Origin: Candidatus Heimdallarchaeum aukensis
GTDB taxonomy: Archaea; Asgardarchaeota; Heimdallarchaeia; Heimdallarchaeales; Heimdallarchaeaceae
Length of the DNA: 64,000 bases
NCBI GenBank assembly: GCA_021513695.1
Contig: CP084166.1
Span: 2,784,001-2,848,000, forward strand
Direction: 5' to 3'
Shown: piece by piece, positions 1 to 24,782 of the stretch
How the letters are laid out: each line of letters opens with the position of its first letter
How positions within the stretch are numbered: the stretch's first letter is position 1
Made by a program: the position numbers and the translations under genes
The notes under the pieces: generated by a model
Told to the model about the DNA's origin: nothing
Databases searched by the model: none
What the model saw: the letters and a program-made list of their open reading frames with translations, nothing else

Positions 1-25
1 TATTCTTTATATCCAACTTTCATCG

Positions 26-589
26 TTGTATTGGGCTGGATTATTTGAAGAAATTTCTTTCAGATTCTTGATCATGGGTGTTCCCTTATTTATTATTCAT
101 GGTTTTCGTTACTTAATAGCAAAGATTTTACAATATTATAAATCAAAAAATGAGGTTCCAGTGAAAGAAAAAGAAGAAAACAAAAAAATAGAGAATCCTT
201 TTCTCTATTTAACTGGTCGTTGGAAAAAGTTAAGGATTATTGATTTTGTTTTCTTGATAGCTTCTTCTTTCTTTTTTGGTTATGTTCATTATCAATTTGG
301 AAGTTGGGCTATATGGAAAATCTTTCAGGCTGGAATTGCTGGACTTATTTTTGGATATGCTTTCTATAAATTTGGTTTGCACGCAGCTATCTTCCTTCAT
401 ACAGTCAATGATTTTGCAATAGGTATAATGCTTGTTCCAAATTTAGGGTTAATGGTTCAAGGAGGATTTGTAGTTATTGTACTTGTTTTAATGGGAATAA
501 TGTACTCATTCTATATTTTTTCATTATTTCTTAAAAAAACAAGCAATCTAAGCTTTAGAAAATTGAATAAACAAAAAGAGGTAAACTAA
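26..589 (+). CDS. CPBP family intramembrane glutamic endopeptidase (CAAX protease/Abi-like), probably 5'-partial
   Basis: Multi-pass hydrophobic protein carrying the CPBP motifs EExxxR (EEISFRF) and HxxxN (HTVNDF). The frame is open to the window edge, so the true start may lie upstream. Its stop overlaps the next start (taATGa at 587-591). Confidence 0.6.
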   Translation: MYWAGLFEEISFRFLIMGVPLFIIHGFRYLIAKILQYYKSKNEVPVKEKEENKKIENPFLYLTGRWKKLRIIDFVFLIASSFFFGYVHYQFGSWAIWKIFQAGIAGLIFGYAFYKFGLHAAIFLHTVNDFAIGIMLVPNLGLMVQGGFVVIVLVLMGIMYSFYIFSLFLKKTSNLSFRKLNKQKEVN

Positions 590-1176
590 TGACACTTGAT
601 AGCAGATTATACTTTAAAGTTGTTTTAGCTGGAGAAGCAGGGGTAGGAAAAACAAGTCTTCGAAGAAGTTATTTGGGAGTAGGATTCCAGACACAGCATT
701 TAAGTACTATAGGTGCAGACTTTGCAAGTTATTCTACAAAAATAAATGAACAAAGAGTGAATTTTCAGATTTGGGATTTAGCTGGTCAAGATATCTTCGA
801 AAGCATGCGAAATTTGTATTATAAAGGAAGTTTGGGTGCATTGATGGTTTTTGATGTAACCGATGTATCTAGTCTAGAAGCCTTAAACAATTGGATAATT
901 GAATTAGATAAAAATTCAGGTAGAGGAATTGTACCTTTTTCCATATTAGGAAATAAAATAGATCTATTAGATGAGGAAGAACTCAATAAAATAAGAAAAA
1001 CTGTAGACTTAGTCATAAAAAAATACAATAAAAAATTTGCAAGTAAGGGTTTTTCGATTAATTATTTTGAAACTTCAGCGAAAACTGGCCATAATGTCAA
1101 AATCGCTTTTAATAATCTTGGAGAATCAATTTTTAATTATCTTGAATTCAGAAGAAAGAAGAGGGAAGAAAGTTGA
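589..1176 (+). CDS. Rab/Ras-like small GTPase
   Basis: G1 GEAGVGKTS, switch I TIGADF (Rab-like), G3 DLAGQD, G4 GNKID and G5 ETSAK are present. The C-terminus is polybasic (RRKKREES) with no CaaX cysteine. Confidence 0.85.
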   Translation: MTLDSRLYFKVVLAGEAGVGKTSLRRSYLGVGFQTQHLSTIGADFASYSTKINEQRVNFQIWDLAGQDIFESMRNLYYKGSLGALMVFDVTDVSSLEALNNWIIELDKNSGRGIVPFSILGNKIDLLDEEELNKIRKTVDLVIKKYNKKFASKGFSINYFETSAKTGHNVKIAFNNLGESIFNYLEFRRKKREES

Positions 1177-3527
1177 AAAATATTGATGTTGAACTAAGAG
1201 ATTTATTGAGAACTGGAAAAAAAGAATCTATTGATATAAATAACCTAAAAAAACTAAAAAGTATAATTCTCTTCCTAAATGACGAGGATCGTGAAATAAG
1301 ACGTACTACACAAGAGATTCTCTTATCTGCTCCTATAATCCCAGTTAGCGAAATTGTTGATCTTTATCTCTCTACTGAGAGTGAATATGTTGCTGATTTT
1401 ATAGTTGAAAATTTAAATATTTTCTTAATTGATTTGGTAGACAGATTTAGTAACAAGATAGATAGTATTATTGTTTCTGAATTAATTAAAAAAATCCCTG
1501 TAAAAGATTTATTTGCTACTTTAGTCGAAATCGCTGAAATTACTCCTATTTCAGCTAAAAAAGCTGAACTCATAATCCGAACATGTTATCCTTCTTTTTC
1601 AGAAAGCATGAATTCATTAATATCCTATGATTTTATTGAAAATTTCAAAAAAGAGATAAAAAAACTTCTTTCTATAAGACTAAAAGAGAATGATAAAAAT
1701 ATTACAACTCTTGTTCTAAAGACTGCGTGTTTCTTTCCTGAACTTCCCCCTCTGATAGAAAAAGAACTAATTAATATCATTAATCATTCAGATATAGAGG
1801 AACACATAATTTATGCAACTACTGCTTTAATAAATGTAGAAAACAAAAAGAATGCGCAGATTCTAGCTAATAGACTTAAAAATGGAAAAGATTCAGAAAA
1901 AGTAAAATTAGCTATTATTGAATCCCTTGGTAATATAGGAAATCCAAAGATTGCGCCAATAATGATCGAATTATTCGATGAAGGAGGACAGATAGCTTAC
2001 TCTACATCTAAAAGTCTGGGGTCAATGGGTGTTGAAGTCTTACCTTATTTAGTTCAAGCATTAAAAGAAGATCGTTATATACCAAATATTGTAGAGTCTA
2101 TGAAACGTATTGGTAGTGCAAGCTTCGAATATCTGATGACTAGCTTGGAAAAGGAAAGAAATATACAAATTAGAAAAAACATTGCTCATTGTTTAACACT
2201 GGTGATGCATGAACAATATGGTTATGAGGGAACAATTAAACTACTAACAAACGAATTAGCAGGAAAAAATCGAGAGCTAGTAGAAGCAGTAACTCAAGCG
2301 CTAATAAATTTAGGTACTCCTTCAATTGAGTATCTCATTGATGAATTAAATGATAAAGATCGCGAATTAAGAAAAAATGCAGTAAAAATTCTTGAACATT
2401 TTGGAGAAGGAAATATTGAAATTGCTCTTGATGGGTTACTTGAAACAGATGAAGATAGAGTAGGTACATTGAGTATTATATTATATGTTTACCATCCTGA
2501 TGAAAGATTAAGAAAATTAGGATATTCTTTTGCTGTTCATAAAGGAAATCTAAGAGCTAAAAAAACAGACAAATTACTTGAAATATTGACTGATGCCCTT
2601 AATGAAATTGACCCCTATATTCGAATTCGTTCTTGTGATATACTTGTATTTTTCAAAAGTAAGGCCATTCCTCATTTAACCAAACTTCTCTCTGACCCAA
2701 ACATTCTAGTTAAAAGAAAAGCAGCAGAGGCACTACGTACAATAAAAAGCAAAAGAGCATTAATAGCATTGATGAATGCTGCTACTGATAAAGACCCAAT
2801 AGTTTCTGAAATTTCTACAAGAGCTTTGGGAGAATTAGGAGATCCAGGTGTTGTAGATATCATTCTTGGGAATTTAAAGAGAAATAGTCAAGCAATATAT
2901 GAAGCTTCAGTTTATGCTCTTTCTCAACTAGGAACACCTATATTACACAAGATAACAAAAGAATTAAGCAGTTCAAATAAAAAAGTTGTAGATGGTATAG
3001 TCGATGCAATATCGAAAATAGGGACAGTTGGACTAGAAATTCTGATAAAAAAATATTTAGAAGAGAACGGAAGAAGAGTTGCACAAATTGAACGAATAAT
3101 TGGAAAAATGGGCGAAACAGCAATACCTGCAATATTAGAAATATATGAAAAGACTAGTGATTCTCAAAATAAAGAAAAGTTATTGAGACTAAGGGCAAAG
3201 ATTAAAGATACTTCTGTAACTAAAGAAATAGTTGAAAAGCTACAAAAACCAGCTAGTAAAAAAACAGCAATTGAACTTATAAATTTGATTGGAATTGAAT
3301 GTGTGAATAAAATAGTTGATGAATTACTCAAATTAGAACAAAACAAAGTAAAAAGGATTTTCACAAAGAATATTAAAATTGAACCTAAAATATTGGTTTC
3401 GATTATTAAGGAGTTGAAATTAAGAGAACAACAGCAACTTGCACTACATCTTATTAATCAAAACCAAAGAACGTTAAAGAAATTTGTAAGCGAGAATCCA
3501 GAATTTGAAAGTTTGTTTGAAGAATAA
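1173..3527 (+). CDS. HEAT/PBS-lyase-like repeat protein (784 aa)
   Basis: Repeated ~30-aa units of the form LG(N/E)IG...A...L....D....VR..A..AL (PBS lyase HEAT-like repeats). The TTG start overlaps the GTPase stop (tTGA). Confidence 0.7.
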   Translation: MKNIDVELRDLLRTGKKESIDINNLKKLKSIILFLNDEDREIRRTTQEILLSAPIIPVSEIVDLYLSTESEYVADFIVENLNIFLIDLVDRFSNKIDSIIVSELIKKIPVKDLFATLVEIAEITPISAKKAELIIRTCYPSFSESMNSLISYDFIENFKKEIKKLLSIRLKENDKNITTLVLKTACFFPELPPLIEKELINIINHSDIEEHIIYATTALINVENKKNAQILANRLKNGKDSEKVKLAIIESLGNIGNPKIAPIMIELFDEGGQIAYSTSKSLGSMGVEVLPYLVQALKEDRYIPNIVESMKRIGSASFEYLMTSLEKERNIQIRKNIAHCLTLVMHEQYGYEGTIKLLTNELAGKNRELVEAVTQALINLGTPSIEYLIDELNDKDRELRKNAVKILEHFGEGNIEIALDGLLETDEDRVGTLSIILYVYHPDERLRKLGYSFAVHKGNLRAKKTDKLLEILTDALNEIDPYIRIRSCDILVFFKSKAIPHLTKLLSDPNILVKRKAAEALRTIKSKRALIALMNAATDKDPIVSEISTRALGELGDPGVVDIILGNLKRNSQAIYEASVYALSQLGTPILHKITKELSSSNKKVVDGIVDAISKIGTVGLEILIKKYLEENGRRVAQIERIIGKMGETAIPAILEIYEKTSDSQNKEKLLRLRAKIKDTSVTKEIVEKLQKPASKKTAIELINLIGIECVNKIVDELLKLEQNKVKRIFTKNIKIEPKILVSIIKELKLREQQQLALHLINQNQRTLKKFVSENPEFESLFEE

Positions 3528-3528
3528 G

Positions 3529-4533
3529 CTAAAAATCTTTTTTCTCAATTTCTCCTTTTTGCATTTGTGGTATTAACTCTTTTATCAGTAAAGGAAGCAA
3601 GTTAAGTTCCATGTGAAAAGGAGAAAAAATTTCGATATTTTTCTCATCAAAATTGAAATATGGTTTTTCTACAGTTTCCACAAGATAATAGTCTAATATT
3701 TTAAAATCTTGAATAGTTGAAAAGAGTATAGTAAAATTTTCAGTTAATTGTTGCAATATTTTCTCTTTTTCTGATTTTGAAGTAAGCTGGAAAAGGTTTA
3801 GATAGCCTTCTGTTTCCATATGAATGTATAATTTAGTGGTGTTATCAATTAAATTTATTCTAGGAAATTTCTCTACTAATGGCGTCTTTGCTGCTAGAAC
3901 ATTAGTTAGTTTATTTCTCTCAGGAATAATAGTATGATCTGTTAGTATCAAAAACTTGTTAACGCGTATCCTTTTACTTTTAAAAAGAAATTCTTTATTA
4001 TCCGGATTGTAACTGATTTCTTGTTTCCTATATTCTATTAGTTCTACTTTTAATTTTTTTAGTTCATTTAAAATATAAGCTGCTAAACCCCCTAAATTAT
4101 TTATAACAAGTGAGGAATCAGAAATTAAGCCCTTGTTATATCTCTCTGAATTTAATAAAGGGAGAGTTTGTTTAATCTCTTTTTGTCTTAAAATACTGCA
4201 GTTCATATTAGAATTTTGTAGTTTATTATACATCTCTTCAGTTTCACGTAGAGAACTGTTTAGAATTAATAGTGAAGCTTTTGAAATATCAAAGGATTTT
4301 GTAGTGTAAAATAAATCATTATAAAATTCTAAAGAGGTAGTCAATATTTGTTCAATCTTTTCTAGTGGGTATGAAAATAATGGATAGACAAAACTAGGGA
4401 GAAAAAGACTGTTGCGAATAAGTTCTTCGTTGTAAAAATAAGTTATCTTTAAATCTGAATTTTCTTTCATTATTTGATAGACTAAAATTAAGCTGGTGAG
4501 ATTATTTCCAATGACAACTATATCTCTTTCCAT
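3529..4533 (-). CDS. hypothetical protein (334 aa), degenerate Rossmann-like N-terminus
   Basis: Long ORF whose N-terminus (DIVVIGNNLTSL) resembles a degenerate dinucleotide-binding beta-alpha-beta motif. No other motif was recognised. Confidence 0.45.
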   Translation of the reverse strand: MERDIVVIGNNLTSLILVYQIMKENSDLKITYFYNEELIRNSLFLPSFVYPLFSYPLEKIEQILTTSLEFYNDLFYTTKSFDISKASLLILNSSLRETEEMYNKLQNSNMNCSILRQKEIKQTLPLLNSERYNKGLISDSSLVINNLGGLAAYILNELKKLKVELIEYRKQEISYNPDNKEFLFKSKRIRVNKFLILTDHTIIPERNKLTNVLAAKTPLVEKFPRINLIDNTTKLYIHMETEGYLNLFQLTSKSEKEKILQQLTENFTILFSTIQDFKILDYYLVETVEKPYFNFDEKNIEIFSPFHMELNLLPLLIKELIPQMQKGEIEKKDF

Positions 4534-4584
4534 TATTCAAATAATAACAAATGGATTTATAAATTCGATTGTGTAGAGAAACAT

Positions 4585-4863
4585 ATGTCATATGTGATAA
4601 AATTAAAAGTAATTAAACAAGAAGGACATTGTGCTTCAGGGCACAAAGTTGGGGATGAAATTGAGATTAATTACAATGACAATTCAATAAAAGGAAAAAT
4701 TTGTCTTCATGCTCTCTATTCAATTCTTCCCAAAGTTTTTGCTATGGCGTATGGATCTGAGTTTCCATGGTTAGAAAATGCTGATGTTTCCACACATGCA
4801 TGTCCAGATTACAAGAATCCAGTGGTTTTTGAGGTTAGAAGAGAAAAAATAAAAGAAAATTAA
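4585..4863 (+). CDS. small Cys-containing protein, TIGR04076-like
   Basis: 92 aa with C..GHKVGDE...ICLHAL..LP......G..FPW......ACPD..NPVVFE.RR. This matches my recollection of the TIGR04076 family consensus. Confidence 0.5.
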   Translation: MSYVIKLKVIKQEGHCASGHKVGDEIEINYNDNSIKGKICLHALYSILPKVFAMAYGSEFPWLENADVSTHACPDYKNPVVFEVRREKIKEN

Positions 4864-4896
4864 ACTTTAGATATTTCAAAAATAAAAAAAGATAAG

Positions 4897-5817
4897 CTAT
4901 CCTTTGACCAATTTTATTATTGCATCTATTATAAAATCTAATAGAAATACAAGGAATACGATTAATAAGATTTCTTTTGTAGTATATGCCCATTTAGGAT
5001 TTTGAGTAATGATTATTGCTATAGCTAAACCTAATACTAGTAGAGCCAAGATAATAGCAATAATAAGTGAGGGTAAGTATAAGTCAGCAATAATCATCGC
5101 ACCAATAGCTCCCCCTGCTAGACCTAGAAGGAAAAAAGCACCTACGATGCCAGCTACTCTTGGACCAAAAACAACAGCTATAGTTTTGTTTCCTGCTTTT
5201 TTATCTCCTTCGATGTCTGGTAAACCTTTTATTACTTCTCTACCTACATTTCCAGAAGCTGCCGCAAGACCTACAATAGTTGGAACCCAAGTAAAACCTT
5301 GTTGATAAACAAAATAACTGAATAGAGATCCATAGACAAAGAGAGCTACAACATTCAATCCAATAAGCACATTACCAAAAAATCCCATCTGTTTTACTTT
5401 GAAATTGTATAAGTTTAATGAACTTCCAAATATTAAAGCTGTAATAACACTTATTCCTGGTAAACCTTCTCTAATATCAATTAACAAAGCTAAAATTAGA
5501 GCGATCAAAGCAACAATTACCCCGTAAATAACTGCTGTTCTTACTGATATTTTCTTTGATGGTATAGGTCTATGTGGAGCATTTACTAGATCTTCTTCTC
5601 TGTCTGCAATATCATTAAAAATCATAGCTTGAGATGAAACGAGCGTACCAGATAATAGAACAAGTAGAAGGGTTATGTAATCAATTTTTGCTCCTACAGG
5701 AGTTGATAGAATGATAGCAAAAATTGCAGCTGTTCCTGCTACTATACCATTTACTAACCTAAGAATTGTTATATAAGAAAGAAAAATATCTTTTTTCGAG
5801 TGTTTTGTTAAAGACAT
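4897..5817 (-). CDS. UbiA-family prenyltransferase, likely digeranylgeranylglyceryl phosphate (DGGGP) synthase
   Basis: Polytopic membrane protein with the NDxxDxxxD motif (NDIADREED) near residue 70 and a second Asp-rich motif (DIEGDKK) near residue 200. Its length of 306 aa is typical of archaeal DGGGPS. Confidence 0.75.
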   Translation of the reverse strand: MSLTKHSKKDIFLSYITILRLVNGIVAGTAAIFAIILSTPVGAKIDYITLLLVLLSGTLVSSQAMIFNDIADREEDLVNAPHRPIPSKKISVRTAVIYGVIVALIALILALLIDIREGLPGISVITALIFGSSLNLYNFKVKQMGFFGNVLIGLNVVALFVYGSLFSYFVYQQGFTWVPTIVGLAAASGNVGREVIKGLPDIEGDKKAGNKTIAVVFGPRVAGIVGAFFLLGLAGGAIGAMIIADLYLPSLIIAIILALLVLGLAIAIIITQNPKWAYTTKEILLIVFLVFLLDFIIDAIIKLVKG

Positions 5818-7240
5818 AAGGTCTAATCATTAGCAGATGAATTTAAATCTTACCTCTTTTTTTGAGTATAAATTACTCGCTTTTTTTTCCTGTTATCTCA
5901 AATGTTTTGATTTCACTATCATTTTCAGGAAGTTTAAGCAGTTCTAAAAGTGATAAGATCATCTTGCCAAATAATTTTTCCATAAATTCATTTAAAGGAA
6001 TCTCTTTTCCATTAATCTTTACTTCTATTTCATCTAACATGAAAAAAAAAACACTGTTGAGTTTATTAATTTTATCTTAATCTCAAATGAATAATTATAA
6101 CTTTTTTAGTTAAAGAATTCACTTAACCAAGAGTTCACTATACTTTTTTGCTAAATTAAATGAAAAAAATTTAAAGAAAAGAAGCAATAAAATTATATTT
6201 AAATATTATGAGCGTAGGTAAGAATATAGGTGTAAATTTTCATGGAAGTAGGTGCGTTAATTTTTATGCTACTAATTGCACTGGCAGTGTACATAACCAT
6301 AAGGGTTTCCTCAGCGAATAAGAAGAAGAGAAAACAAATTTATCGTAAACGATATCAACCTTATCAACCTTACAGACCTTATCAGCCATCACACCTAGAT
6401 TCTTCTCAAAGAACAAGTTATCAGAGTGAAGAAACCACCCCAACAACAAGAACTTCTTCTATTTATCAACCTCAAACTCAACCCTCTTATACTCCACAAA
6501 GAACTCCAATAGCAACAAATAATGCCGATGATTATTATCGTGCAGGAATGTACGATAGAGCAAAAGAAGAATATCTTAAAACAGGGAGGATATTTGGTGC
6601 AGCTAAATCTGTAGCTTCTAAAGGAAAAGAATATGTAAAAGAAGCTTTGGAAATAATTAGACAATATGCTCCAGAAAGAGAAGAAGAAATGGTAAGAAAT
6701 CTTTCAAGATACTTTTTTGATAGTGGAGATGTAGAATTATCAGCTCAAGTATTATATGATTATAATCTTATTGAAGAAGCTAAAGCAGTATTAGCTACCA
6801 TAGGAAAGAGTATAGAAGATATAGTTGAACCTAAATCTGTTGAGATTAGCACATTCAGTAGCACTGAACCCTTTCTATCTAGTACTGAAAGTGAAACAGA
6901 ACCTATCATTTCCAGTTTTGCTAGCGATACTGAACCAATAAATGATGCAAGAGAAGAGCTGAAAGTATTGGCAAGTGAAGAAGAAGCAGAACCCATTGAG
7001 CCTTTTACAAGTCAAGTTGAAAAACAGAAAAAAATAGAACCACAACAACTAAAGATAGCTACAGTAGATTTAGATGAAAGATGTACAGTTTGTTTAGGAG
7101 AAGTAAAAGCAGGAGAAAGTTTTGTTAGATGTCCCCATTGTGGAAAACCTTCTCATTATTCTCATTTAGTAGAATGGCTAAAAGTAAAAACCCAATGTCC
7201 TAACTGTAGAAACAAATTATCATTAAATATGTTTAAAACA
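5098..7240. repeat. tandem direct duplication, copy 1 (2143 bp)
   Basis: Direct sequence comparison: 5098-7240 matches 7241-9381 apart from two 1-bp indels. The left edge lies inside the UbiA CDS. Confidence 0.9.
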
Positions 7241-7264
7241 CGCACCAATAGCTCCCCCTGCTAG
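6242..7264 (+). CDS. membrane-anchored RING-like zinc-finger protein with YQP repeats
   Basis: N-terminal TM helix, a KKKRK stretch, YQPYQPYRPYQP repeats, a low-complexity S/T/E-rich middle, and a C-terminal CxxC-x12-CPHC-x4-HxxH-x10-CPNC (RING/zinc-ribbon-like). The last 7 codons read across the duplication junction. Confidence 0.6.
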   Translation: MEVGALIFMLLIALAVYITIRVSSANKKKRKQIYRKRYQPYQPYRPYQPSHLDSSQRTSYQSEETTPTTRTSSIYQPQTQPSYTPQRTPIATNNADDYYRAGMYDRAKEEYLKTGRIFGAAKSVASKGKEYVKEALEIIRQYAPEREEEMVRNLSRYFFDSGDVELSAQVLYDYNLIEEAKAVLATIGKSIEDIVEPKSVEISTFSSTEPFLSSTESETEPIISSFASDTEPINDAREELKVLASEEEAEPIEPFTSQVEKQKKIEPQQLKIATVDLDERCTVCLGEVKAGESFVRCPHCGKPSHYSHLVEWLKVKTQCPNCRNKLSLNMFKTRTNSSPC

Positions 7265-7959
7265 ACCTAGAAGGAAAAAAGCACCTACGATGCCAGCTAC
7301 TCTTGGACCAAAAACAACAGCTATAGTTTTGTTTCCTGCTTTTTTATCTCCTTCGATGTCTGGTAAACCTTTTATTACTTCTCTACCTACATTTCCAGAA
7401 GCTGCCGCAAGACCTACAATAGTTGGAACCCAAGTAAAACCTTGTTGATAAACAAAATAACTGAATAGAGATCCATAGACAAAGAGAGCTACAACATTCA
7501 ATCCAATAAGCACATTACCAAAAAATCCCATCTGTTTTACTTTGAAATTGTATAAGTTTAATGAACTTCCAAATATTAAAGCTGTAATAACACTTATTCC
7601 TGGTAAACCTTCTCTAATATCAATTAACAAAGCTAAAATTAGAGCGATCAAAGCAACAATTACCCCGTAAATAACTGCTGTTCTTACTGATATTTTCTTT
7701 GATGGTATAGGTCTATGTGGAGCATTTACTAGATCTTCTTCTCTGTCTGCAATATCATTAAAAATCATAGCTTGAGATGAAACGAGCGTACCAGATAATA
7801 GAACAAGTAGAAGGGTTATGTATCAATTTTTGCTCCTACAGGAGTTGATAGAATGATAGCAAAAATTGCAGCTGTTCCTGCTACTATACCATTTACTAAC
7901 CTAAGAATTGTTATATAAGAAAGAAAAATATCTTTTTTCGAGTGTTTTGTTAAAGACAT
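7241..7959 (-). pseudogene. UbiA prenyltransferase fragment (duplicate copy, 3'-truncated and frameshifted)
   Basis: Duplicate of the first ~240 codons of the 4897..5817 gene. A 1-bp deletion breaks the frame, and the C-terminal 66 codons are absent. Confidence 0.8.
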
Positions 7960-9381
7960 AAGGTCTAATCATTAGCAGATGAATTTAAATCTTACCTCTT
8001 TTTTTGAGTATAAATTACTCGCTTTTTTTTCCTGTTATCTCAAATGTTTTGATTTCACTATCATTTTCAGGAAGTTTAAGCAGTTCTAAAAGTGATAAGA
8101 TCATCTTGCCAAATAATTTTTCCATAAATTCATTTAAAGGAATCTCTTTTCCATTAATCTTTACTTCTATTTCATCTAACATGAAAAAAAAAACACTGTT
8201 GAGTTTATTAATTTTATCTTAATCTCAAATGAATAATTATAACTTTTTTAGTTAAAGAATTCACTTAACCAAGAGTTCACTATACTTTTTTGCTAAATTA
8301 AATGAAAAAAATTTAAAGAAAAGAAGCAATAAAATTATATTTAAATATTATGAGCGTAGGTAAGAATATAGGTGTAAATTTTCATGGAAGTAGGTGCGTT
8401 AATTTTTATGCTACTAATTGCACTGGCAGTGTACATAACCATAAGGGTTTCCTCAGCGAATAAGAAGAAGAGAAAACAAATTTATCGTAAACGATATCAA
8501 CCTTATCAACCTTACAGACCTTATCAGCCATCACACCTAGATTCTTCTCAAAGAACAAGTTATCAGAGTGAAGAAACCACCCCAACAACAAGAACTTCTT
8601 CTATTTATCAACCTCAAACTCAACCCTCTTATACTCCACAAAGAACTCCAATAGCAACAAATAATGCCGATGATTATTATCGTGCAGGAATGTACGATAG
8701 AGCAAAAGAAGAATATCTTAAAACAGGGAGGATATTTGGTGCAGCTAAATCTGTAGCTTCTAAAGGAAAAGAATATGTAAAAGAAGCTTTGGAAATAATT
8801 AGACAATATGCTCCAGAAAGGAAGAAGAAATGGTAAGAAATCTTTCAAGATACTTTTTTGATAGTGGAGATGTAGAATTATCAGCTCAAGTATTATATGA
8901 TTATAATCTTATTGAAGAAGCTAAAGCAGTATTAGCTACCATAGGAAAGAGTATAGAAGATATAGTTGAACCTAAATCTGTTGAGATTAGCACATTCAGT
9001 AGCACTGAACCCTTTCTATCTAGTACTGAAAGTGAAACAGAACCTATCATTTCCAGTTTTGCTAGCGATACTGAACCAATAAATGATGCAAGAGAAGAGC
9101 TGAAAGTATTGGCAAGTGAAGAAGAAGCAGAACCCATTGAGCCTTTTACAAGTCAAGTTGAAAAACAGAAAAAAATAGAACCACAACAACTAAAGATAGC
9201 TACAGTAGATTTAGATGAAAGATGTACAGTTTGTTTAGGAGAAGTAAAAGCAGGAGAAAGTTTTGTTAGATGTCCCCATTGTGGAAAACCTTCTCATTAT
9301 TCTCATTTAGTAGAATGGCTAAAAGTAAAAACCCAATGTCCTAACTGTAGAAACAAATTATCATTAAATATGTTTAAAACA
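7241..9381. repeat. tandem direct duplication, copy 2 (2141 bp)
   Basis: Identical to copy 1 except that an 'a' is deleted near 7810 (copy 1 has gtaatc at ~5669) and another near 8820 (copy 1 has aaagagaag at ~6678). Confidence 0.9.
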
Positions 9382-9384
9382 TAA
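8384..9384 (+). pseudogene. RING-like zinc-finger protein, duplicate copy with frameshift
   Basis: Identical to 6242..7264 except for a 1-bp deletion at ~8820. The deletion splits it into ORFs 8384..8836 and 8830..9384. It keeps the apparent native stop (..MFKT*). Confidence 0.8.
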
Positions 9385-9391
9385 TAAAATT

Positions 9392-9880
9392 CTATTTTTT
9401 TTCCACACCCTCATTTTGATATATACCACTATATCCTTTTGCCACTTTATCTTTTATTTCGAAAAAGACTAGTTGAGCAATTCTCGCATTTTGATGGATG
9501 TTTATTGTTCTAGAAGTATAGAGAAGGCCTATTCCTCTTCCTTTGTATCCTGGATCCCATAAAGCAGAAAAAATAGTTGCTCCGATTCTCATCAATGAAG
9601 AACGAGGAAGAAGAATTGCCGCCATATCTAATGGCACACTGACTATTTCATTATATTGGACTACATATCCACCAGGTTGAAGAACCCAGCGGTTATTACT
9701 TTTTGGTAGTTCAACATAATCAGGAATAAATCTTTGTGAATTATCGAAGTCTAGTTCTCCACCATCATCAAGAATAAAGATGTTCCGTACAGTAAGATCG
9801 ATGCCTGCACTTTGAACTTGCTTTTTTATATTCACTGCGGAACTAACATTGTTTATAATAGAAGAAGGAGGAATAATCAT
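9392..9880 (-). CDS. dCTP deaminase/dUTPase-family protein (likely dUTP diphosphatase)
   Basis: Motifs PRSSLMRIG, WDPGYKGRGIGLL and NARIAQLVF are typical of the Dcd/Dut beta-barrel family. Its 162 aa fit an archaeal dUTPase. Confidence 0.7.
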   Translation of the reverse strand: MIIPPSSIINNVSSAVNIKKQVQSAGIDLTVRNIFILDDGGELDFDNSQRFIPDYVELPKSNNRWVLQPGGYVVQYNEIVSVPLDMAAILLPRSSLMRIGATIFSALWDPGYKGRGIGLLYTSRTINIHQNARIAQLVFFEIKDKVAKGYSGIYQNEGVEKK

Positions 9881-9953
9881 TTAATCTCACATTTTTCTTA
9901 TAGTTGCTAAGCTTCAAATTAGTTAATTATTGATCTTTTTTCTAAAGCCTATA

Positions 9954-10271
9954 TTAGTTGAAATAGGAACTGAGTTTCTCTTCTTTTTGGCAAACGTTGC
10001 AGTCTTCTTCTTGATAACTTAATATGTCTCTTGCAATTTTTGCGTTGTGTCTATCCTTCTGAATGCTATAGCAAAGTTTTGAAGGAGAACATGTTCCTTT
10101 TGTAAAGTAGGTCTTCTTATTTGCATTATAGAAAAGTTTTCCTCCTTTTAATGGACAGTTACAAACTTCGATATATACAGGAGAGTTATCATAATTAATG
10201 TTAGTTATCTTAGCAAGTGCTTTTTCTAACCTATTATCCAGATAATGATCTTGAACCTTTTGATAAGTCAT
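9954..10271 (-). CDS. hypothetical Cys-rich small protein (105 aa)
   Basis: ORF with eight Cys (CNCP, C, C, C, CNVC). It sits immediately downstream of the TnpB right end. No family was recognised. Confidence 0.4.
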   Translation of the reverse strand: MTYQKVQDHYLDNRLEKALAKITNINYDNSPVYIEVCNCPLKGGKLFYNANKKTYFTKGTCSPSKLCYSIQKDRHNAKIARDILSYQEEDCNVCQKEEKLSSYFN

Positions 10272-10500
10272 TGTAATTAAATTACAATGTTAAGTATAAA
10301 GATGTGTAATACTTAAGAATTATAGTTAACTAAGTTAGGATATTTTCTCAATAACATGGTCTACTTTTTCCTAAATTCCGATTTAGATTAAAAATCGGAA
10401 GAAGTAGTAAGTTTAGTCGGTGGAAAAAAAGAAAGAGAAAGAACAGCGTAAAAGCTGGTCTAACTAACTTAACTTGCTAACTTATTTTCCAACGGACGGG
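10272..10500 (-). ncRNA. candidate TnpB omega-RNA (reRNA) / IS right-end region
   Basis: Non-coding stretch immediately 3' of and overlapping the tnpB end. It contains stem-loops and is placed by analogy with known IS605 omega-RNA loci. Confidence 0.3.
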
Positions 10501-11736
10501 GTGAACCACTGCAGCCCAGACTATCCCGTAGTTAGACATAACAGAGAATAACGTGGGGAATACTTTGCGACCGATATTACCTGCAGAGTTGATATCAGCA
10601 TTAATTTTTAATCCTCTGGTACTGATGAACAGTCCACGGTGAGTTCTTTTGCCAGCATAATGGGGGTGAAAAGCTATCTCTTCATTATCTAAGAAACTGC
10701 AGACAGAGGTGTAGGACTCTTCGGTAGGAATAACTTTTATCCCTTTTTCTTCTGCTTTGTAAGTGATTTTGTCAATGAGGGATTTAAAGGGGATAAAAAC
10801 AAAGGTTTGATTATTTTTCTTTCCCATATTCACTTTCTGTTTCCATCTGGGGTTGTAACCTATAACTATCGTATCAATGTTTTTTTCTAAACAGTAGTCT
10901 ATTATCTTCCTACTTGCTTTATGGAAATAGTCAGCTATTTTACACATTCGTTCTAACTGGAGAGTAAGCATTTTTCTTCCCCAGGTGGTTAATCCTTGCT
11001 TGTCATAGATTGACTGTAATTTTGCCCTACGTTTATTAAACCACTGATTAACAGCTTTAATGGGTCTACCATTTATCAGAAAACCTTTTTCACCAGGAAT
11101 AGTGGTTAACCCGCCTACAAGGTTATTCACTCCCAGATCAAGAGCTAGAACTCTTTCTGCATGTCGTTTTTTTCGTTCTTCTATCTCTTTCTCGTAAACT
11201 ATCTCTAATTTAAATTTCGTTCCCATAGGTATAAGACGGGCAAACTTCACTTTCGTTGAAGGACACAGTCTTGTAACTATCTTTAGTCCTACACGTTTAG
11301 GGAAAGAGATAAAAAATTTTTCTTTTTCTTGCTCTTTTTCTTCTTTAATTTTCACTTGAGAGTTAGTAAAATAGATTATAGCAAGTCCATCTTTCTTCTT
11401 CTATTTTGGAGGACGGGGTTTACCATTAAACTTTTCTGGTTCTTTTTTGCATTCTTCTAAAGACCTAAAATACCCTTTCCACGCTAAACATAGAAACTTT
11501 ATCGTCTGTTGTGCCGTATGACCAGGTAGTGCTGTGTAGGTCGGGTGATACCTTAAAATATTCATCAGTTCGAACTCTCTCGTGAAATATTTACTTTTTC
11601 TTAACTGATACTTAATAATGTAATTTGCTTGATTATACAAGTTTTTTACCTGGTGTGCCAACTGCTTTAGAGTGATCGATTCTTTCACCCATATTTCCTC
11701 AGTTCGGTACACCTTTTTCCTCATTTTTTCTTTCAT
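10477..11736 (-). pseudogene. tnpB: RNA-guided endonuclease TnpB (OrfB_IS605), interrupted
   Basis: The N-terminal ORF 11401..11736 (HTAQQTIKFL...FNGKPRPPK) and the RuvC-bearing C-terminal ORF 10477..11355 (LALDLGVNN, PTEESYTS, ADINSAGNI) are separated by an in-frame stop or frameshift near 11356-11400. The zinc-finger cysteines are missing. Confidence 0.75.
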
Positions 11737-12015
11737 TTATTTTTACTTTTTTCCCTATTTAAACTCCTCATCTTCCCTCCTCTCCTCTCTTCTCCTCTCC
11801 TTTATTCTTCTTTTTTCCCCCTCTTCTACAACTTCGTAATTTCGGAAAAAGTAAACCATCAGAACTTCTTTTACGCATTTTTTAGTAATTGTTGAACTTA
11901 AGAGTTTCAAGAACTTTTGTAAAGAGAAATAATTTTGAACATTTATTGTAAAAATACTTTAAATAGTGAATTGACTTCTGTTGTACAGAGAGAATTATAT
12001 AAAGAAGTGAAGAAA

Positions 12016-13113
12016 ATGCCTGAAAAAAAGCAAACAAAGGAAACAAAAAGTGCAAAAACAAAGAAGACATTAACTAAGGAAGACTTGAAAGAACCTCAAG
12101 ATGATAATTGGATAGACGAAATTGTAAGTAAAAAAGAAAAAACTGTTGTTAAAGAAAAAATCAGTGACGCTCCAATAAGATCAATTCCTGGAATTGGTCC
12201 TGCTGTTGCAGAAAAATTGATGTCTGCTGGATATTTAACCCTTACTTCTGTAGCTCATGCTTCTCCTATGGAATTAGTAGAATTTTGCGAAATTGGAGAA
12301 CAAACTGCGAATAAAATTATTTCAGCTGCTAGAGCTCAAGTGGGTATTGGCTTTAAAAAGGCTAGTGAAATCCTAAATCTTCGAGAAAAAGTTTCAAAAA
12401 TCTCAACTGGTAGTAAAGCACTTGATTCTCTATTGATGGGGGGGATAGAAACTAAATCAATTACTGAATTGTCTGGAGAATTTAGAACAGGAAAAAGTCA
12501 AATATGCTTTCAACTTTGTGTAAATACTGCTTTAGATAAAAAGCATGGAGGACTGGAAGCAGGTGTTATTTTCATTGATACTGAAGGAACTTTTAGACCT
12601 GAAAGGATTGTTGATATGTGCGCAAGGTTTGGAAAAGATGTAGATACAGAAGAAGTGCTAAACAGGATTAATGTAGGTAGAGCTTATAATTCTGATCACC
12701 AAATGCTTCTTGTTCTTGAAAGTCCTAAAATTATAACAGAAAACAATGTAAAACTTATTGTAATTGATTCTCTTACCAGCCACTTTAGAGCCGAATATAC
12801 AGGAAAAGGAACTATATTAGAAAGACAACAGAAGTTGAATAAGTTTTTGCATCAACTTCTACGTTTAGCTGATGTATATGATCTGGCTATTGTTGTAACA
12901 AACCAAGTACAAACAAAACCTGATATTTTAATAGGTGAATCAACTACTCCCATCGGAGGAAATATTGTCGCACATTCATGTACGACCAGAATATTTCTTA
13001 GAAAGGGTAAAGGCGATAAGAGAATCGCAAGAGTAATTGATAGTCCAAGTATTCCAGAAACAGAAGCAATTTTCAGAATAACAAAATTAGGAATAGAAGA
13101 TGTAGGAGAGTAG
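12016..13113 (+). CDS. radA: DNA repair and recombination protein RadA
   Basis: HhH region IPGIGPAVAEKLMSAGY, Walker A GEFRTGKSQ, and RecA-fold motifs. The ORF is open from 11935, and the ATG at 12016 was chosen as the start. A K/E-rich ~55-aa extension precedes the HhH region. Confidence 0.85.
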   Translation: MPEKKQTKETKSAKTKKTLTKEDLKEPQDDNWIDEIVSKKEKTVVKEKISDAPIRSIPGIGPAVAEKLMSAGYLTLTSVAHASPMELVEFCEIGEQTANKIISAARAQVGIGFKKASEILNLREKVSKISTGSKALDSLLMGGIETKSITELSGEFRTGKSQICFQLCVNTALDKKHGGLEAGVIFIDTEGTFRPERIVDMCARFGKDVDTEEVLNRINVGRAYNSDHQMLLVLESPKIITENNVKLIVIDSLTSHFRAEYTGKGTILERQQKLNKFLHQLLRLADVYDLAIVVTNQVQTKPDILIGESTTPIGGNIVAHSCTTRIFLRKGKGDKRIARVIDSPSIPETEAIFRITKLGIEDVGE

Positions 13114-13243
13114 TAAAAGGGGTTTTTTGTTTACAAATCCAACTCTCTTTTTTCATTGCGACTTACAAAATCTTTAAGTATTAAAATTATAATTATTAGA
13201 CTGATATAGATTAAAATATCAATTCAAACCATGGTGAATATTT

Positions 13244-14029
13244 ATGGCAGAAGAAAATGAAGGAACATCTGTAGGAGAAGCTATAAAGATTACAGAATTA
13301 GAAAATGAAAAGAAAAAACTGGAAGAAAAAGTCCAAGCTTTGACTGAGGAGGTTAATAAGTTAAAAGAAGAGAATTCGTCTTTAGTCGAGAAAAATAATG
13401 AACTAACAGAAAAACTGAGTAGTTTAGAACAAACCTCTGGAACAGCTGAACAACAAGAACAAGAAGTGAATGAATTAAAGGAAAAGCTTTCTTCTACTCA
13501 ACAAGAAAAAGAAAATTTAAGCCAAGAGTTACAAAAACTAAAAGATGAGATGTTGCGAAAAGATGAAGAATTGAATGAAAAAAATAGAGAACTAAATAGC
13601 ATGAAAGAACAACTAGAAGAAAAGCAAAAAATGATTGATCAACTAAAAGAAGAAGTTTCTACAATTGAAAGAAGTAAATCTGAATTAGAATCACAATTGA
13701 AATCAATTAATGACGAAAAAATGGAAATAGAAGCTAAATACAACGAGCTGCTAAAAGAAACTTCTAAACTAGATGAACTAAAGACGTCGCTTCAAGATAA
13801 AGAAGAGGCATTAAGAAGATTTCAAATAATTGCAGAAACTGATCCATCTTATGCTTGGTTAACTACATTAGAGCAGTACAAAGTTATAGAACTAAAAAGA
13901 CTAGCAATGTCTGCTGGTGCTTCAACTCATGCCATACTTCAATATGTTAAAAAATTAGAAGCTGCAGGACTCGTTGAACTAGAATTTCATGGTAGAGAAG
14001 ACAGCAATCCTGTTGTAAAGTTGAAATAA
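13244..14029 (+). CDS. coiled-coil protein with a C-terminal winged-helix-like domain
   Basis: About 200 aa of heptad-rich E/K/L sequence, followed by YKVIELKRLAMSAGASTHAILQYVKKLEAAGLVELE (wHTH-like). Confidence 0.5.
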   Translation: MAEENEGTSVGEAIKITELENEKKKLEEKVQALTEEVNKLKEENSSLVEKNNELTEKLSSLEQTSGTAEQQEQEVNELKEKLSSTQQEKENLSQELQKLKDEMLRKDEELNEKNRELNSMKEQLEEKQKMIDQLKEEVSTIERSKSELESQLKSINDEKMEIEAKYNELLKETSKLDELKTSLQDKEEALRRFQIIAETDPSYAWLTTLEQYKVIELKRLAMSAGASTHAILQYVKKLEAAGLVELEFHGREDSNPVVKLK

Positions 14030-14089
14030 ATTTAATTTGCTTTTCTTTATTTTCTTTATTTTTATCTTTCTGATTTTAATGCGTTTTTG

Positions 14090-14791
14090 TTACTTGAAAA
14101 GTGACTTAAAATATAACCAAATAATCCTTTTATTTATTTTTGAAGAACCATAATCTCTATGTCCAAAATCATATTCTACTTCTTGAATTCTTATTTTCTT
14201 TGGGAATGCTTTTAGAAAATCAAATAATACTTTATACCCTTCAAGAGTAAACTTTTGTTCTTTTTTTTGGATTAAATCTTTCCATATTTCAGTTTTCGAA
14301 GCAAAGAAACCAGACATTATATCTTGACATTTATTCTTGTTTCTTAGACTTAAAACTATTTTACCAAGTATAGTTGCAGAATAAGAAATTAATTTTCTAT
14401 GAAAAGACCATTTCTCTTTTACTTTTCTTCTTTTTCCTACTACTAAATCAAACCCTTTATTCAGCTCCTCGTAAAATTCAGGAAGTTTTTTAGGTGGATG
14501 TTGAAGATCAGCATCCATTACTAAAAAGTAAGGGGTCTCTGTTTGTAAAATAGCATCTAAAACACTGGCTGTTAAACCATGTACTGGTTTTTTACTTCTA
14601 TCAAGAAATTTAACATTTAAATTTCCTTCAAATGAAATGACATTTTGCTTGGTATTATCAAAGGAACCATCATCTGTAACAATTACTTTAGCTTCTGGAA
14701 CATATTTTTCTAGTTCTTCTAGTAATATCTGTATTGCTTTCTCTTCGTTAAGAGTAGGAACAATAACTGTTAAATTGGAGAAAGAATTCAT
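14090..14791 (-). CDS. family 2 glycosyltransferase (dolichol-phosphate mannosyl/glucosyltransferase-like)
   Basis: VIVPTLNEE...TDDGSFDNT...MDADLQHPP, the DPM1-like GT-A fold motifs. Confidence 0.8.
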   Translation of the reverse strand: MNSFSNLTVIVPTLNEEKAIQILLEELEKYVPEAKVIVTDDGSFDNTKQNVISFEGNLNVKFLDRSKKPVHGLTASVLDAILQTETPYFLVMDADLQHPPKKLPEFYEELNKGFDLVVGKRRKVKEKWSFHRKLISYSATILGKIVLSLRNKNKCQDIMSGFFASKTEIWKDLIQKKEQKFTLEGYKVLFDFLKAFPKKIRIQEVEYDFGHRDYGSSKINKRIIWLYFKSLFK

Positions 14792-14955
14792 TAGAGTAAC
14801 CTTTCGTGTTCGCTATAAAAACATTAAGATAAAAATTCGTTTTTTTAAAAAAAACTTTTTAGTTAAAGTTCTTTAAAGTATAGAATAAAATGTATTTCCA
14901 TTATCAGTAAATATTTAAGGGATTTAAAATAAATTAATTTGTAGAGGATAGAAAA

Positions 14956-15642
14956 ATGAGTATTTATATAGTTGAAAAAACAGGGGAACTTTCTACATGT
15001 CATGATAAAGATCGTGCATTAAAATCAGAAAATGTATTAATTGTTGTTTCACACATGGATAAAAAAGTTTACACATGGGTGGGGTCAAGAGCTTCTCCCC
15101 AATCAAAATTCGCTTGTGCAAGAGAAACAGCACGAATGAGGATGGAATTGGGTTATCGTGCAGTGAATCTAGAAGAAGCTGATACAACAGAATCATTCTT
15201 GAGAGCTATAGATGAAGTTCTTAATGGAAGTGATAGTTCAGGAACAAGTTTTAGACCAAGGCCTGCTGCTTATTCTTCTCAAATAAAAGAAAAGAAAAAA
15301 GAGAAAATTCGAGAAAAGCAGAAAGAAGTTATTAAGAAAGAAGAACCTAAAGATATAAAAGCTGCTGTTACACCCTCTGTAAAACTCGATGCTTCTTCTC
15401 CTAAAGTTCTTGATATCAATTACGTAGTAAAGCAAACTTCAACTCTTCCACCTATCAATGGGATGATTAGAGATTATATAATAATAGGCGATAAACTATA
15501 TATTGCTCCTGATGAAGATACTTCTGAGGTAGCAATGATGGATTCTCTTCCAGATGGGGGATTTGTGGCAGAGGATTATTTACCAAGATTATATATAGAA
15601 AATGGACGAGTAATAGCTGTAGAACTATGGAGAGAGCAGTAA
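14956..15642 (+). CDS. gelsolin/cofilin-fold domain protein (Asgard gelsolin-like)
   Basis: The N-terminal ~90 aa (IYIVE...ENVLIVVS...KVYTWVGSRASPQSKFACARETARMRMELGY) match the gelsolin-repeat signature (..Y.W.G..SS..E...AA..A..L). A K/E/P-rich linker and a ~60-aa C-terminal domain follow. Confidence 0.55.
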   Translation: MSIYIVEKTGELSTCHDKDRALKSENVLIVVSHMDKKVYTWVGSRASPQSKFACARETARMRMELGYRAVNLEEADTTESFLRAIDEVLNGSDSSGTSFRPRPAAYSSQIKEKKKEKIREKQKEVIKKEEPKDIKAAVTPSVKLDASSPKVLDINYVVKQTSTLPPINGMIRDYIIIGDKLYIAPDEDTSEVAMMDSLPDGGFVAEDYLPRLYIENGRVIAVELWREQ

Positions 15643-15755
15643 ATTCTTTATTATTCAAACTTTTTCTAGAATTTTTGTTAAAAAATAATTAAGAATCAGT
15701 TTTTTTAAAGTAAGAAATATTAAAGAACTTGATCTATTAATATTAATTTGACATT

Positions 15756-16298
15756 TTACTTATTTTCTCCAAGTTTCTTCATTACTAACTTGACTATTGT
15801 GACATAAACATCATTTACTCCTGCTCCTAATTTAGCAGAAGTCTCAAGAACTTGGTAACCTTTACTTTCCCATTCTTTTTTTGCTTGTTCATAAGGTACA
15901 GCTCTTTGTTCTTCTAGATCTGTTTTATTTCCAACAATGATGATTGGTATGTCAGGTACTTTATTTTCTATCTCTGATATCCAATAAGAAATATTTTCAT
16001 ATGATTCTTTTCTAGTAATGTCATAAACCACCACAGCACCATGAGCTCCAGTGTAATACCTTTTCCTTAAGGAAGCTAGACGTTCTTGTCCCACTGTATC
16101 AAATAATACCATTTTTATTTTTGTATCCTCATCAATGTCAACTTCCTTGCTGTAGAAATCCACTCCTAATGTAGGAAGATAATTAACCGAAAATTTGTTC
16201 TTTGTATATCTCACCGCAATACTTGTTTTTCCGACACTATAGTCACCAACATTAATTATCTTAACAATAAAGGTGACATTTTTGTTTGAACCTAACAT
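15756..16298 (-). CDS. Rab-like small GTPase
   Basis: G1 GDYSVGKTS, switch I TLGVDF, G3 DTVGQE, RKRYYTGAHGAVVVYDIT (Rab-like), G4 GNKTDL and G5 ETSAK. Confidence 0.85.
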   Translation of the reverse strand: MLGSNKNVTFIVKIINVGDYSVGKTSIAVRYTKNKFSVNYLPTLGVDFYSKEVDIDEDTKIKMVLFDTVGQERLASLRKRYYTGAHGAVVVYDITRKESYENISYWISEIENKVPDIPIIIVGNKTDLEEQRAVPYEQAKKEWESKGYQVLETSAKLGAGVNDVYVTIVKLVMKKLGENK

Positions 16299-16320
16299 TT
16301 ACAGTACAACTCTATAATTA

Positions 16321-16395
16321 TTTTATACTTTATAGTTATTTTATATACTTTATAGTTATTTTATATACTTTATAGTTATTTTATATATTTATGTT
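16321..16395. repeat. 20-bp AT-rich tandem repeat (~3.5 copies; unit tatatactttatagttattt)
   Basis: Direct repeats visible at 16321-16340, 16341-16360 and 16361-16380, with a degenerate fourth copy. Confidence 0.85.
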
Positions 16396-16482
16396 TTATA
16401 TTTTTTGTATCTGACAACTTGAGAAATCTTCCGAATAAGTTATAAGTGATAAACTCTAATAACGATTAGTCAGTATACTGAT

Positions 16483-17373
16483 TTGTTATGTGAGGATAAA
16501 AGCATGTCTTCAAAAGTAATAGAATCAATAGCTTATAGCTATGTAGGAAGATTAATTGAACCCTATCTAACAGAATTTGAAGGTTTAAGGACCACACTAA
16601 AAAAAGCCGGAATAGAGCAAAGTGTTAGGATGTATTTAAGCATTAGACTATTCTGGTCCATAGTTTTATCAATAGTTTCACTTTTTGTTCTAATTGCAGT
16701 AAAAATACTAGTACCAAGTTTTTCAGTCATACTGGTTGTCATATTACCTGTGCTAATTTTGTTGACAATGTTTGTAATAACATGGGTATACCCAAGTTAT
16801 CTGATAGGTGAAAGAAAAAGAAAACTAGAAGCAGCTTTACCCACTGCAGCAAGCTATATGACTGCCATGGCTTCTGCAGGAGTTACACCAGATAAAATTT
16901 TCCTTGCTTTATCTAAAGAAGAAAGCATTGGTGAAGCTATTGTTAAAGATGCTAAAAAAATCTCTCGTGATATTCAAGTTTTTGGTTATGATATTGTTCA
17001 TGCTTTAAGCGAAGCATCATCACGTTCTCCTTCTCCTAAGTATTCAAGTTATTTAGAGGGGATTGTTGCGACTTTTACCTCTGGAGGAGAACTTCAGCGA
17101 TTTTTAGAAGTTTCTACTGAAAACTTGATGAGAGATAAAGTTCAAACTGAAAAGAATTTTATTGAAGCGTTAGGTTTAACTGCAGAGTTGTACATGGTTG
17201 TAGGAGTTGTAACTCCTATTTTCTTTATCGTTATAATTGCAATGATGGCCATGTTGGGTGGTAGTGCAAATACTGGGGCTAATGCTCTTCTAGCAATTAC
17301 AGTTTACATAGTCATACCTGTTGGAATGCTGGTAATTATTCTTTTAGTGGACATGCAACAACCGGAGGATTAA
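16483..17373 (+). CDS. type II secretion system F-domain membrane protein (TadB/EpdJ-like)
   Basis: TM helices flank a cytoplasmic GspF-like domain (PTAASYMTAMASAGVTP...). It is paired with a second T2SF gene. Confidence 0.65.
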   Translation: MLCEDKSMSSKVIESIAYSYVGRLIEPYLTEFEGLRTTLKKAGIEQSVRMYLSIRLFWSIVLSIVSLFVLIAVKILVPSFSVILVVILPVLILLTMFVITWVYPSYLIGERKRKLEAALPTAASYMTAMASAGVTPDKIFLALSKEESIGEAIVKDAKKISRDIQVFGYDIVHALSEASSRSPSPKYSSYLEGIVATFTSGGELQRFLEVSTENLMRDKVQTEKNFIEALGLTAELYMVVGVVTPIFFIVIIAMMAMLGGSANTGANALLAITVYIVIPVGMLVIILLVDMQQPED

Positions 17374-17383
17374 GGTGAGTTAA

Positions 17384-18286: not shown

Positions 18287-18295
18287 GGTGATTGT

Positions 18296-18727
18296 ATGGT
18301 AAAAATCGAAACTGAAATAAAAAATATCAAAGCAGATATTGAGGAACTAAAACGAACTTTAAACCAAATGAACTTTAATTTGGTTAGAATAATGGGCACA
18401 ATAGAAAAAGGAATTGCCAGTGTTTCTACTACAGAAGATGGAGAAAAAGTGGTAACTTCTGGAGTTTCTGTTGATTTGGGACCAATTGAAGATAAAATAG
18501 AAAAACTGGAAAAAGAAATGGTTACCAAAAAAGAGCTGAGTAAGCTCGAAGCACGAGTCTCTGAAATAGTTTCTGAAAAAATTAAAAGAGCTGAAGAAAC
18601 ACAAGATAGAGCTCAAAATCTGCTTGAAAAAGGAATGGAATTGGTGGAATTACAGTCAACTCTGGCAGAAATAAAAACACTATTGGAAGAAAGAATTCTC
18701 GGAGATTTGGAAGAAGAAACAGAGTAA
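18296..18727 (+). CDS. coiled-coil protein (pilus-locus accessory)
   Basis: 143 aa, entirely heptad-like E/K/L-rich sequence. Confidence 0.45.
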   Translation: MVKIETEIKNIKADIEELKRTLNQMNFNLVRIMGTIEKGIASVSTTEDGEKVVTSGVSVDLGPIEDKIEKLEKEMVTKKELSKLEARVSEIVSEKIKRAEETQDRAQNLLEKGMELVELQSTLAEIKTLLEERILGDLEEETE

Positions 18728-18736
18728 ATCAAATAG

Positions 18737-21038: not shown

Positions 21039-21077
21039 AAATAGAAAAATGATTAAAAAAGCTTCTATTTATTTTAA

Positions 21078-21707: not shown

Positions 21708-21796
21708 TCTATCACCAATCAGACTTATATTTATTCACAAATATAAACTTAACAATATAAACAAAATAAGAGAAAGGAAAATGGAGAATTAATTTA

Positions 21797-24182: not shown

Positions 24183-24296
24183 TGTTAATTATAATAAAAA
24201 ATGAACATTTAAATACTTTTCATAGAACTAATTTTGTCTTTTTGTATTCCTAAACGATGAAAAATGTAAGAATTGAATAATCAAATTTATGAAAAA

Positions 24297-24773: not shown

Positions 24774-24782
24774 ACCTTTTTC

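Follow-up and report, generated by a model that had tools for sequence, protein, structure and literature searches.

A 2.1-kb tandem duplication in the deposited genome of Candidatus Heimdallarchaeum aukensis PM71 is probably false or at least non-consensus

We analyzed a 64,000-nucleotide stretch (referred to here as the window; coordinates are numbered from its first base) of the deposited genome of Candidatus Heimdallarchaeum aukensis PM71 (GenBank assembly GCA_021513695.1; contig CP084166.1, positions 2,784,001 to 2,848,000 of the forward strand). PM71 is one of the very few circularized genomes of Asgard archaea (Heimdallarchaeia) and serves as a reference in eukaryogenesis studies. Within the window, a 2.1-kb unit comprising the 5' part of a UbiA-family prenyltransferase gene, a 55-amino-acid (aa) open reading frame (ORF), and a RING-finger gene occurs twice in immediate succession. 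An exact-sequence look-up confirmed that the duplication is present in the deposited PM71 genome (a 3,081,793-bp contig), the GenBank proteins of which are the products of the window ORFs. The second copy (positions 7241 to 9381) is probably a false, or at least a non-consensus, duplication that was introduced while the PM71 genome was being built. The predominant genome probably carries one copy, in which the UbiA gene, the 55-aa ORF, and the RING gene are followed directly by a dUTPase-like gene.

The repeat and its counterparts in independent assemblies

The two copies are arranged head to tail, with the following components.

5098-7240 (no strand): copy 1, 2143 bp; same as the single copy of the independent assemblies
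7241-9381 (no strand): copy 2, 2141 bp; without a counterpart in any of the independent assemblies; holds both 1-bp deletions
7235-7246 (no strand): junction AAAACA|CGCACC, where the end of the unit is joined to its start
7821-7822 (no strand): deletion 1 site; frameshift in the duplicated UbiA fragment
8820-8821 (no strand): deletion 2 site; frameshift in the duplicated RING gene

Global alignment of the copies gave 0 mismatches; two 1-bp gaps divide it into three perfect blocks of 581, 999, and 561 bp. Both gaps correspond to an A that is missing from copy 2, both fall in coding sequence, and both lie outside long homopolymers. At the first site, the AA at 5679/5680 of copy 1 is reduced to a single A in copy 2 (7821/7822); at the second, the A at 6679 is missing at 8820/8821, which changes GAG to GG. 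The distance between the deletions is 999 to 1000 bp, which would occur by chance with a probability of ~0.001. This suggests seams of stitched sequence left by a process with 1-kb steps.

The boundaries of the repeat are equally sharp. It extends by 0 bases beyond either boundary (left flank, ...AATCAT|CGCACC; right flank, AAAACA|TAATAA), and the junction is blunt, with 0 nt of microhomology. Apart from the 2.1-kb unit, the window has no repeat of 60 bp or longer, and a perfect repeat of the length of the unit cannot be due to chance.

These features agree closely with the original prediction, which was made from the sequence alone. The near-perfect tandem repeat lacking substitutions and its junction, which proved to be a blunt join, were reproduced by the global alignment. 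The second deletion lies where it had been placed (~8820), and the first, which had been put at ~7810, is actually at 7821/7822. The ORFs described in the next section likewise accord with a left boundary inside the UbiA gene, with an intact UbiA gene and a RING frame reading seven further codons across the junction for copy 1, and with disruption of the copy-2 UbiA and RING sequences by the deletions.

Assemblies of the same strain bear on the status of copy 2. A contig of an independent short-read (Logan) assembly of sequencing run SRR15988954 (SRR15988954_169; 52,991 bp) is 100% identical to positions 1 to 7240 of the window and continues directly with positions 9382 to 10391. It thus contains one unit and has the copy-1 state at both deletion sites; its RING gene ends at the native stop codon and encodes 333 aa. 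Other contigs from this run match the window at 100% identity over positions 11657 to 16353, 16358 to 28286, and 26485 to 49676. Between the SRR15988954 contigs and the window, 46,266 bases outside copy 2 held 0 differences, compared with 2 in copy 2 (2,141 bases); if errors occurred at a uniform rate, both differences would land in copy 2 with a probability of ~0.002. General indel noise in the assembly was therefore rejected as their cause, given the 46,266 other bases without a difference.

The continuity of contig SRR15988954_169 also bears on the junction itself. In a k-mer graph with k=31, the deposited sequence has an in-branch at 5098/7241 and an out-branch at 7211/9352, while the de-duplicated sequence has 0 branches. 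The Logan pipeline builds unitigs and then applies Minia simplification, and a contig should not be able to cross both boundaries unless the junction k-mers are absent or rare. The unbroken state of SRR15988954_169 thus implies that, in this run, the junction is probably absent or of low relative coverage.

Logan contigs from a second run (SRR15988958) also cross both native boundaries in the single-copy arrangement. These contigs differ from the window by single gaps (e.g., at ~5881 and ~20136; loci L004, L006, L011, and L018) and carry several split gene calls. The two gaps that we inspected (L004 and L006) are homopolymer-length indels (T8 to T7 and A6 to A7) private to the run. SRR15988958 appears to be an error-prone run and is possibly one of the MDA/Nanopore libraries (MDA, multiple displacement amplification). 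One of its contigs starts at 5198, i.e., 100 bp into the unit; we considered this start as a graph branch and rejected it as a coincidence, since it reflects an 11-nt gap beside a T6 run.

The predicted proteins that are specific to the duplicated arrangement were likewise confined to the deposited record. An exact look-up traced the 340-, 150-, 184-, 47-, and 198-aa products solely to the GenBank record of the deposited genome and the copies of that record in UniProt/nr; a 181-aa ATG-started ORF spanning the junction had no exact match in the protein collection. In a scan of Joint Genome Institute (JGI) metagenomes, the junction 30-mer was unmatched, as was a native-boundary control that is present in JGI contig L012, so the scan does not bear on the junction either way. 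A 30-mer taken from the unit end was likewise unmatched among genome contigs, where the species is either absent or masked.

Populations of the same species and a sister species show the same single-copy state. Of five such JGI contigs reported, the three examined (from metagenomes 3300033148, 3300033150, and 3300033141) have one copy and the same gene order, at 98.4 to 98.5% identity to the window over positions 1 to 7240 and 97.8 to 98.2% from 7241 onward. The A that is deleted in copy 2 is retained at both sites in the two JGI contigs (2/2) checked there. In the sister species, Candidatus Heimdallarchaeum endolithica (CP084167), the locus is syntenic and single copy. Comparing the window with the 98%-identical contigs, we found that natural variation at the locus consists of 121 to 122 substitutions versus 3 to 4 indels, all of which are intergenic. 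The differences between copy 1 and copy 2 (0 substitutions and 2 coding indels) lie off this natural spectrum.

Genes in and around the unit

The genes of the unit, of its duplicate, and of the right flank are as follows.

4897-5817 (minus strand): UbiA-family prenyltransferase (Pfam PF01040), intact, 306 aa, UJG40608.1; the left boundary of the repeat (5098) lies inside this gene
5873-6040 (minus strand): conserved small ORF, 55 aa, inside the unit; its duplicate is at 8015-8182
6242-7264 (plus strand): RING-finger protein, 340 aa in the deposited form (UJG40610.1); the 333 native residues are followed by RTNSSPC, which is read across the junction
7223-7959 (minus strand): duplicated 5' part of the UbiA gene, split by deletion 1 into 47-aa and 198-aa fragments
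7816-7959 (minus strand): UbiA fragment of copy 2, 47 aa, UJG40611.1
7223-7819 (minus strand): UbiA fragment of copy 2, 198 aa, UJG42165.1; ends in the junction-derived residues CFKHI
8384-9384 (plus strand): duplicated RING gene, which retains the native stop codon and is broken by deletion 2 into 150-aa and 184-aa fragments
8384-8836 (plus strand): RING fragment of copy 2, 150 aa, UJG40613.1
8830-9384 (plus strand): RING fragment of copy 2, 184 aa, UJG40614.1
9392-9880 (minus strand): dUTPase/dCTP-deaminase-like protein, 162 aa, in the right flank

The right boundary of the repeat lies directly before the stop codon of the RING gene; the copy-1 frame therefore reads seven extra codons (RTNSSPC) and yields a 340-aa product. 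All nine aligned RING homologs (9/9) end where the 333-aa form ends, 0 to 2 residues after an MF-x-x motif, and the seven-residue tail was seen in none of them (0/9). In every other assembly, the dUTPase-like gene follows directly after a single RING gene.

The RING protein itself matched the Pfam model zf-RING_2 with a score barely above the cut-off (27.5 versus 27.3 bits). Eight putative zinc ligands (C281, C284, C297, C300, H305, H308, C319, and C322) were invariant in 10/10 aligned sequences. Judged from its sequence, the gene is predicted to encode a membrane-anchored protein with a C-terminal, E3-ligase-like RING finger. The order of the zinc ligands (C-x2-C-x12-C-x2-C-x4-H-x2-H-x10-C-x2-C) differs from the canonical C3HC4 and C3H2C3 arrangements. 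We detected ~59 members of the family (P0001-P0059), nearly all from Heimdallarchaeia-type metagenome-assembled genomes; the closest named relative is that of H. endolithica (87% identity). Members are hydrophobic in an N-terminal segment and have a linker rich in Pro, Gln, and Tyr; their central block (ADxYYRAGMYDRAKEEYLKTGRIFGAAKS...YAPEREEEMVRNLSRYFFDSG) is highly conserved and has no Pfam match.

The UbiA protein scored 104.6 bits against PF01040 (cut-off, 34.2). Its best NCBIfam matches were models of archaeal prenyltransferases and of geranylgeranylglyceryl phosphate (GGGP) geranylgeranyltransferase; all NCBIfam scores were under the respective cut-offs, and the protein is thus not assigned to the specific GGGP geranylgeranyltransferase equivalog. 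The 55-aa ORF has no Pfam match and was also called in the Logan, JGI, and H. endolithica contigs.

Origin of the second copy

According to Wu et al. 2022 (PMC8813620), Ca. H. aukensis was obtained from a single DNA sample, and its Illumina reads (PE150, i.e., paired-end 150 bp) were assembled with metaSPAdes. The assembly then went through two LRScaf iterations with Nanopore reads of MDA-amplified DNA (both Nanopore runs), after which the ends were trimmed and joined into a circle, Sanger sequencing was used to patch an unresolved stretch of 1 kb, and the sequence was polished with Pilon at 346x. Such a pipeline is, in principle, prone to error. As described in the LRScaf paper, contigs with a negative estimated gap are merged, and Ns are inserted when the gap is positive. 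The five published PCR (polymerase chain reaction)/Sanger primers had 0 matches in the window with up to 3 errors allowed; therefore, the repeat is neither the circularization join nor the Sanger patch.

We propose that the duplicate would have been made in this hybrid pipeline of metaSPAdes contigs, two LRScaf rounds with MDA Nanopore reads, and Pilon. The most plausible form would be a blunt software join or a loop traversal of overlapping sequence blocks, with the two 1-base deletions as probable technical seams or errors. The deletions may have outlived short-read polishing because reads of the true sequence fit the perfect copy 1 better, which would deprive the erroneous copy-2 sites of evidence. 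If the assembler had looped through a junction edge of low coverage, belonging either to a rare real variant or to a chimeric fragment, this would account for where the duplicate lies but not for the deletions.

Two readings had been offered in the original prediction, i.e., an assembly or long-read indel artefact and a very recent duplication of which the redundant copy is decaying. The single-copy independent assemblies speak for an assembly artefact and against duplication with decay as the consensus state. A long-read indel artefact describes the case only in part: with an accuracy of 99.9%, copy 2 is far cleaner than raw Nanopore sequence, and no indel errors occur elsewhere in the window. 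The two deletions therefore do not represent general long-read noise. Raw Nanopore gap-fill was rejected as the main origin of copy 2 on the basis of this accuracy and of the clean TnpB-bearing stretch nearby (see below).

Several points weigh against a false duplication arising in the pipeline. The comparison with SRR15988954 presupposes that this run holds the Illumina reads of the sample that was assembled, which is likely given that the strain is the same (100%) and that the paper lists one sample. The absence or rarity of the junction follows from contig continuity and from our understanding of branch handling by Logan and Minia, not from reads. Because the Illumina-only contig runs across the locus without a break, the scaffolder had no obvious ends at 7240|7241. 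Working in 1-kb units is documented for none of the published pipeline steps, and no specific step accounts for a blunt join within a continuous Illumina contig or for the 1000-bp spacing. Finally, copy 2, at 99.9%, is too accurate for a raw Nanopore gap-fill, and its blunt junction is unlike the usual 5- to 8-nt overlap of MDA chimeras (PMC9984789).

False duplications are known mainly from vertebrate assemblies, where their usual causes are haplotype differences or overlaps between contig ends. The present case differs in that the organism is a haploid archaeon, the source is an enrichment metagenome, and the duplicate falls inside one Illumina-only contig. The PM71 repeat resembles the false duplications of Ko et al. 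2022 (Genome Biol 23:205; PMC9516828) in having adjacent near-identical copies, split gene models, and few, technical-looking differences, and probably also in its absence from the organism and in the false gene gains that result.

Genuine tandem duplications in prokaryotes arise through RecA-dependent exchange between repeats or through illegitimate joins at microhomology. The PM71 repeat is similar in its head-to-tail arrangement, its size of a few kilobases, and its single junction, which fuses unrelated sequence into a novel frame. It is dissimilar in that its endpoints are without repeats or microhomology, no second copy occurs in the independent assemblies of the same strain or species, and the differences between the copies are off the substitution-dominated natural spectrum. 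A duplication genuinely present in some or all of the enrichment population is unlikely; it would be a just-born duplication of a fragment of a membrane-lipid prenyltransferase gene and of a Heimdallarchaeial RING gene, with copy 2 silenced by two frameshifts and with the RING protein bearing a new tail.

The form of a real duplication that best survives the evidence is one carried by a minority of the enrichment cells, the low-coverage junction edge of which was looped into the consensus by the assembler. Tandem duplications are frequent and unstable in prokaryotic populations, and such a variant would fit a duplication inside a continuous Illumina contig, which is beyond what a scaffolder alone makes. 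A low-coverage junction dropped during Logan/Minia simplification would also be compatible with the unbroken contig. We nevertheless regard a minority variant as quite unlikely, because the junction lacks microhomology, the copies differ solely by two 1-bp deletions that lie outside long homopolymers and ~1000 bp apart, with 0 substitutions, and the frameshift and junction products occur in no non-GenBank assembly. In addition, a loop over one graph edge gives identical copies, so that the deletions would need a technical cause anyway.

Single-base deletions are typical residual Nanopore errors, and both Nanopore runs of the sample were MDA amplified. These observations raise a different route to an artefact, in which scaffolding or gap filling drew on a Nanopore read that contained a direct MDA chimera, with copy 2 being this read after polishing. 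Direct chimeras join same-strand sites <10 kb apart (PMC9984789), as is the case here. Their overlap is, however, usually 5 to 8 nt (peak, ~7 nt; PMC9984789), compared with 0 nt at the PM71 junction, and copy 2 is at short-read accuracy. A raw read would have ~100 or more errors in 2.1 kb, and short reads would map to copy 1, yet only 2 differences remain; moreover, in the LRScaf paper gaps are filled with Ns and not with reads. This route is thus very unlikely.

A fixed, very recent real duplication, in which the redundant copy is decaying by frameshifts and which short-read assemblies collapsed, would fit the location of both inactivating changes in the dispensable copy (copy 1 and the left flank keep UbiA intact) and the fact that a 2.1-kb perfect repeat is beyond short-read assemblers, but it is highly improbable: a full-coverage junction should interrupt k=31 contigs at each boundary instead of being collapsed silently, and SRR15988954_169 is continuous there; the broken RING copy has the native stop codon while the surviving one has the foreign seven-residue tail (0/9 homologs); 0 substitutions and 2 indels stand against ~120 and 3 to 4 in natural variants; and the three conspecific contigs and the sister species are single copy.

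Consequences for the reference genome and other features of the window

If the duplicate is false, the genome is 2,141 bp too long and five GenBank/UniProt entries are artefactual (i.e., UJG40610.1, through its false C-terminal tail, and UJG40611.1, UJG42165.1, UJG40613.1, and UJG40614.1). Counts of RING/E3 and UbiA paralogs or pseudogenes in the lineage would then be inflated. The practical value of the finding is that of an erratum to a reference Asgard genome, and biologically it offers nothing new. Looking up proteins in independent assemblies of the same reads is a cheap way to expose false duplications in "closed" metagenome-derived genomes.

Downstream of the repeat, one further feature provides context.

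10392-11656 (minus strand): TnpB/IS605-OrfB-like gene stretch (Pfam OrfB_IS605 and Cas12f1-like_TNB), outside the repeat

The SRR15988954 Logan contigs stop at 10391 and resume at 11657, on either side of this TnpB-bearing stretch, which is clean relative to an environmental contig. The TnpB-like frame (10477-11736, minus strand; 420 codons) contains a single in-frame TAG at 11401-11403, which divides it into 111-aa and 292-aa ORFs. The same split was called in the 98%-identical environmental contig L012, and the TAG is therefore not private to the deposited assembly. The split could reflect a pseudogene or, alternatively, stop-codon readthrough or recoding.

At 16353-16358, two SRR15988954 contigs abut with a 4-base gap, and the window has no repeat there. 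In H. endolithica, a DDE transposase lies near the equivalent position, between syntenic genes.

Two genes for Ras/Arf/Roc-type small GTPases (589-1176, plus strand; 15756-16298, minus strand) and one for a HEAT-repeat protein of 784 aa (1173-3527) were also present. GTPase and HEAT-repeat genes are typical eukaryote-like signature genes of Asgard archaea, and those in the window are syntenic with H. endolithica. Farther downstream, the precomputed Pfam list shows at least three insertions of the intein plus LAGLIDADG homing-endonuclease type in a 2561-aa ORF for the ribonucleotide reductase large subunit (26098-33783, plus strand).

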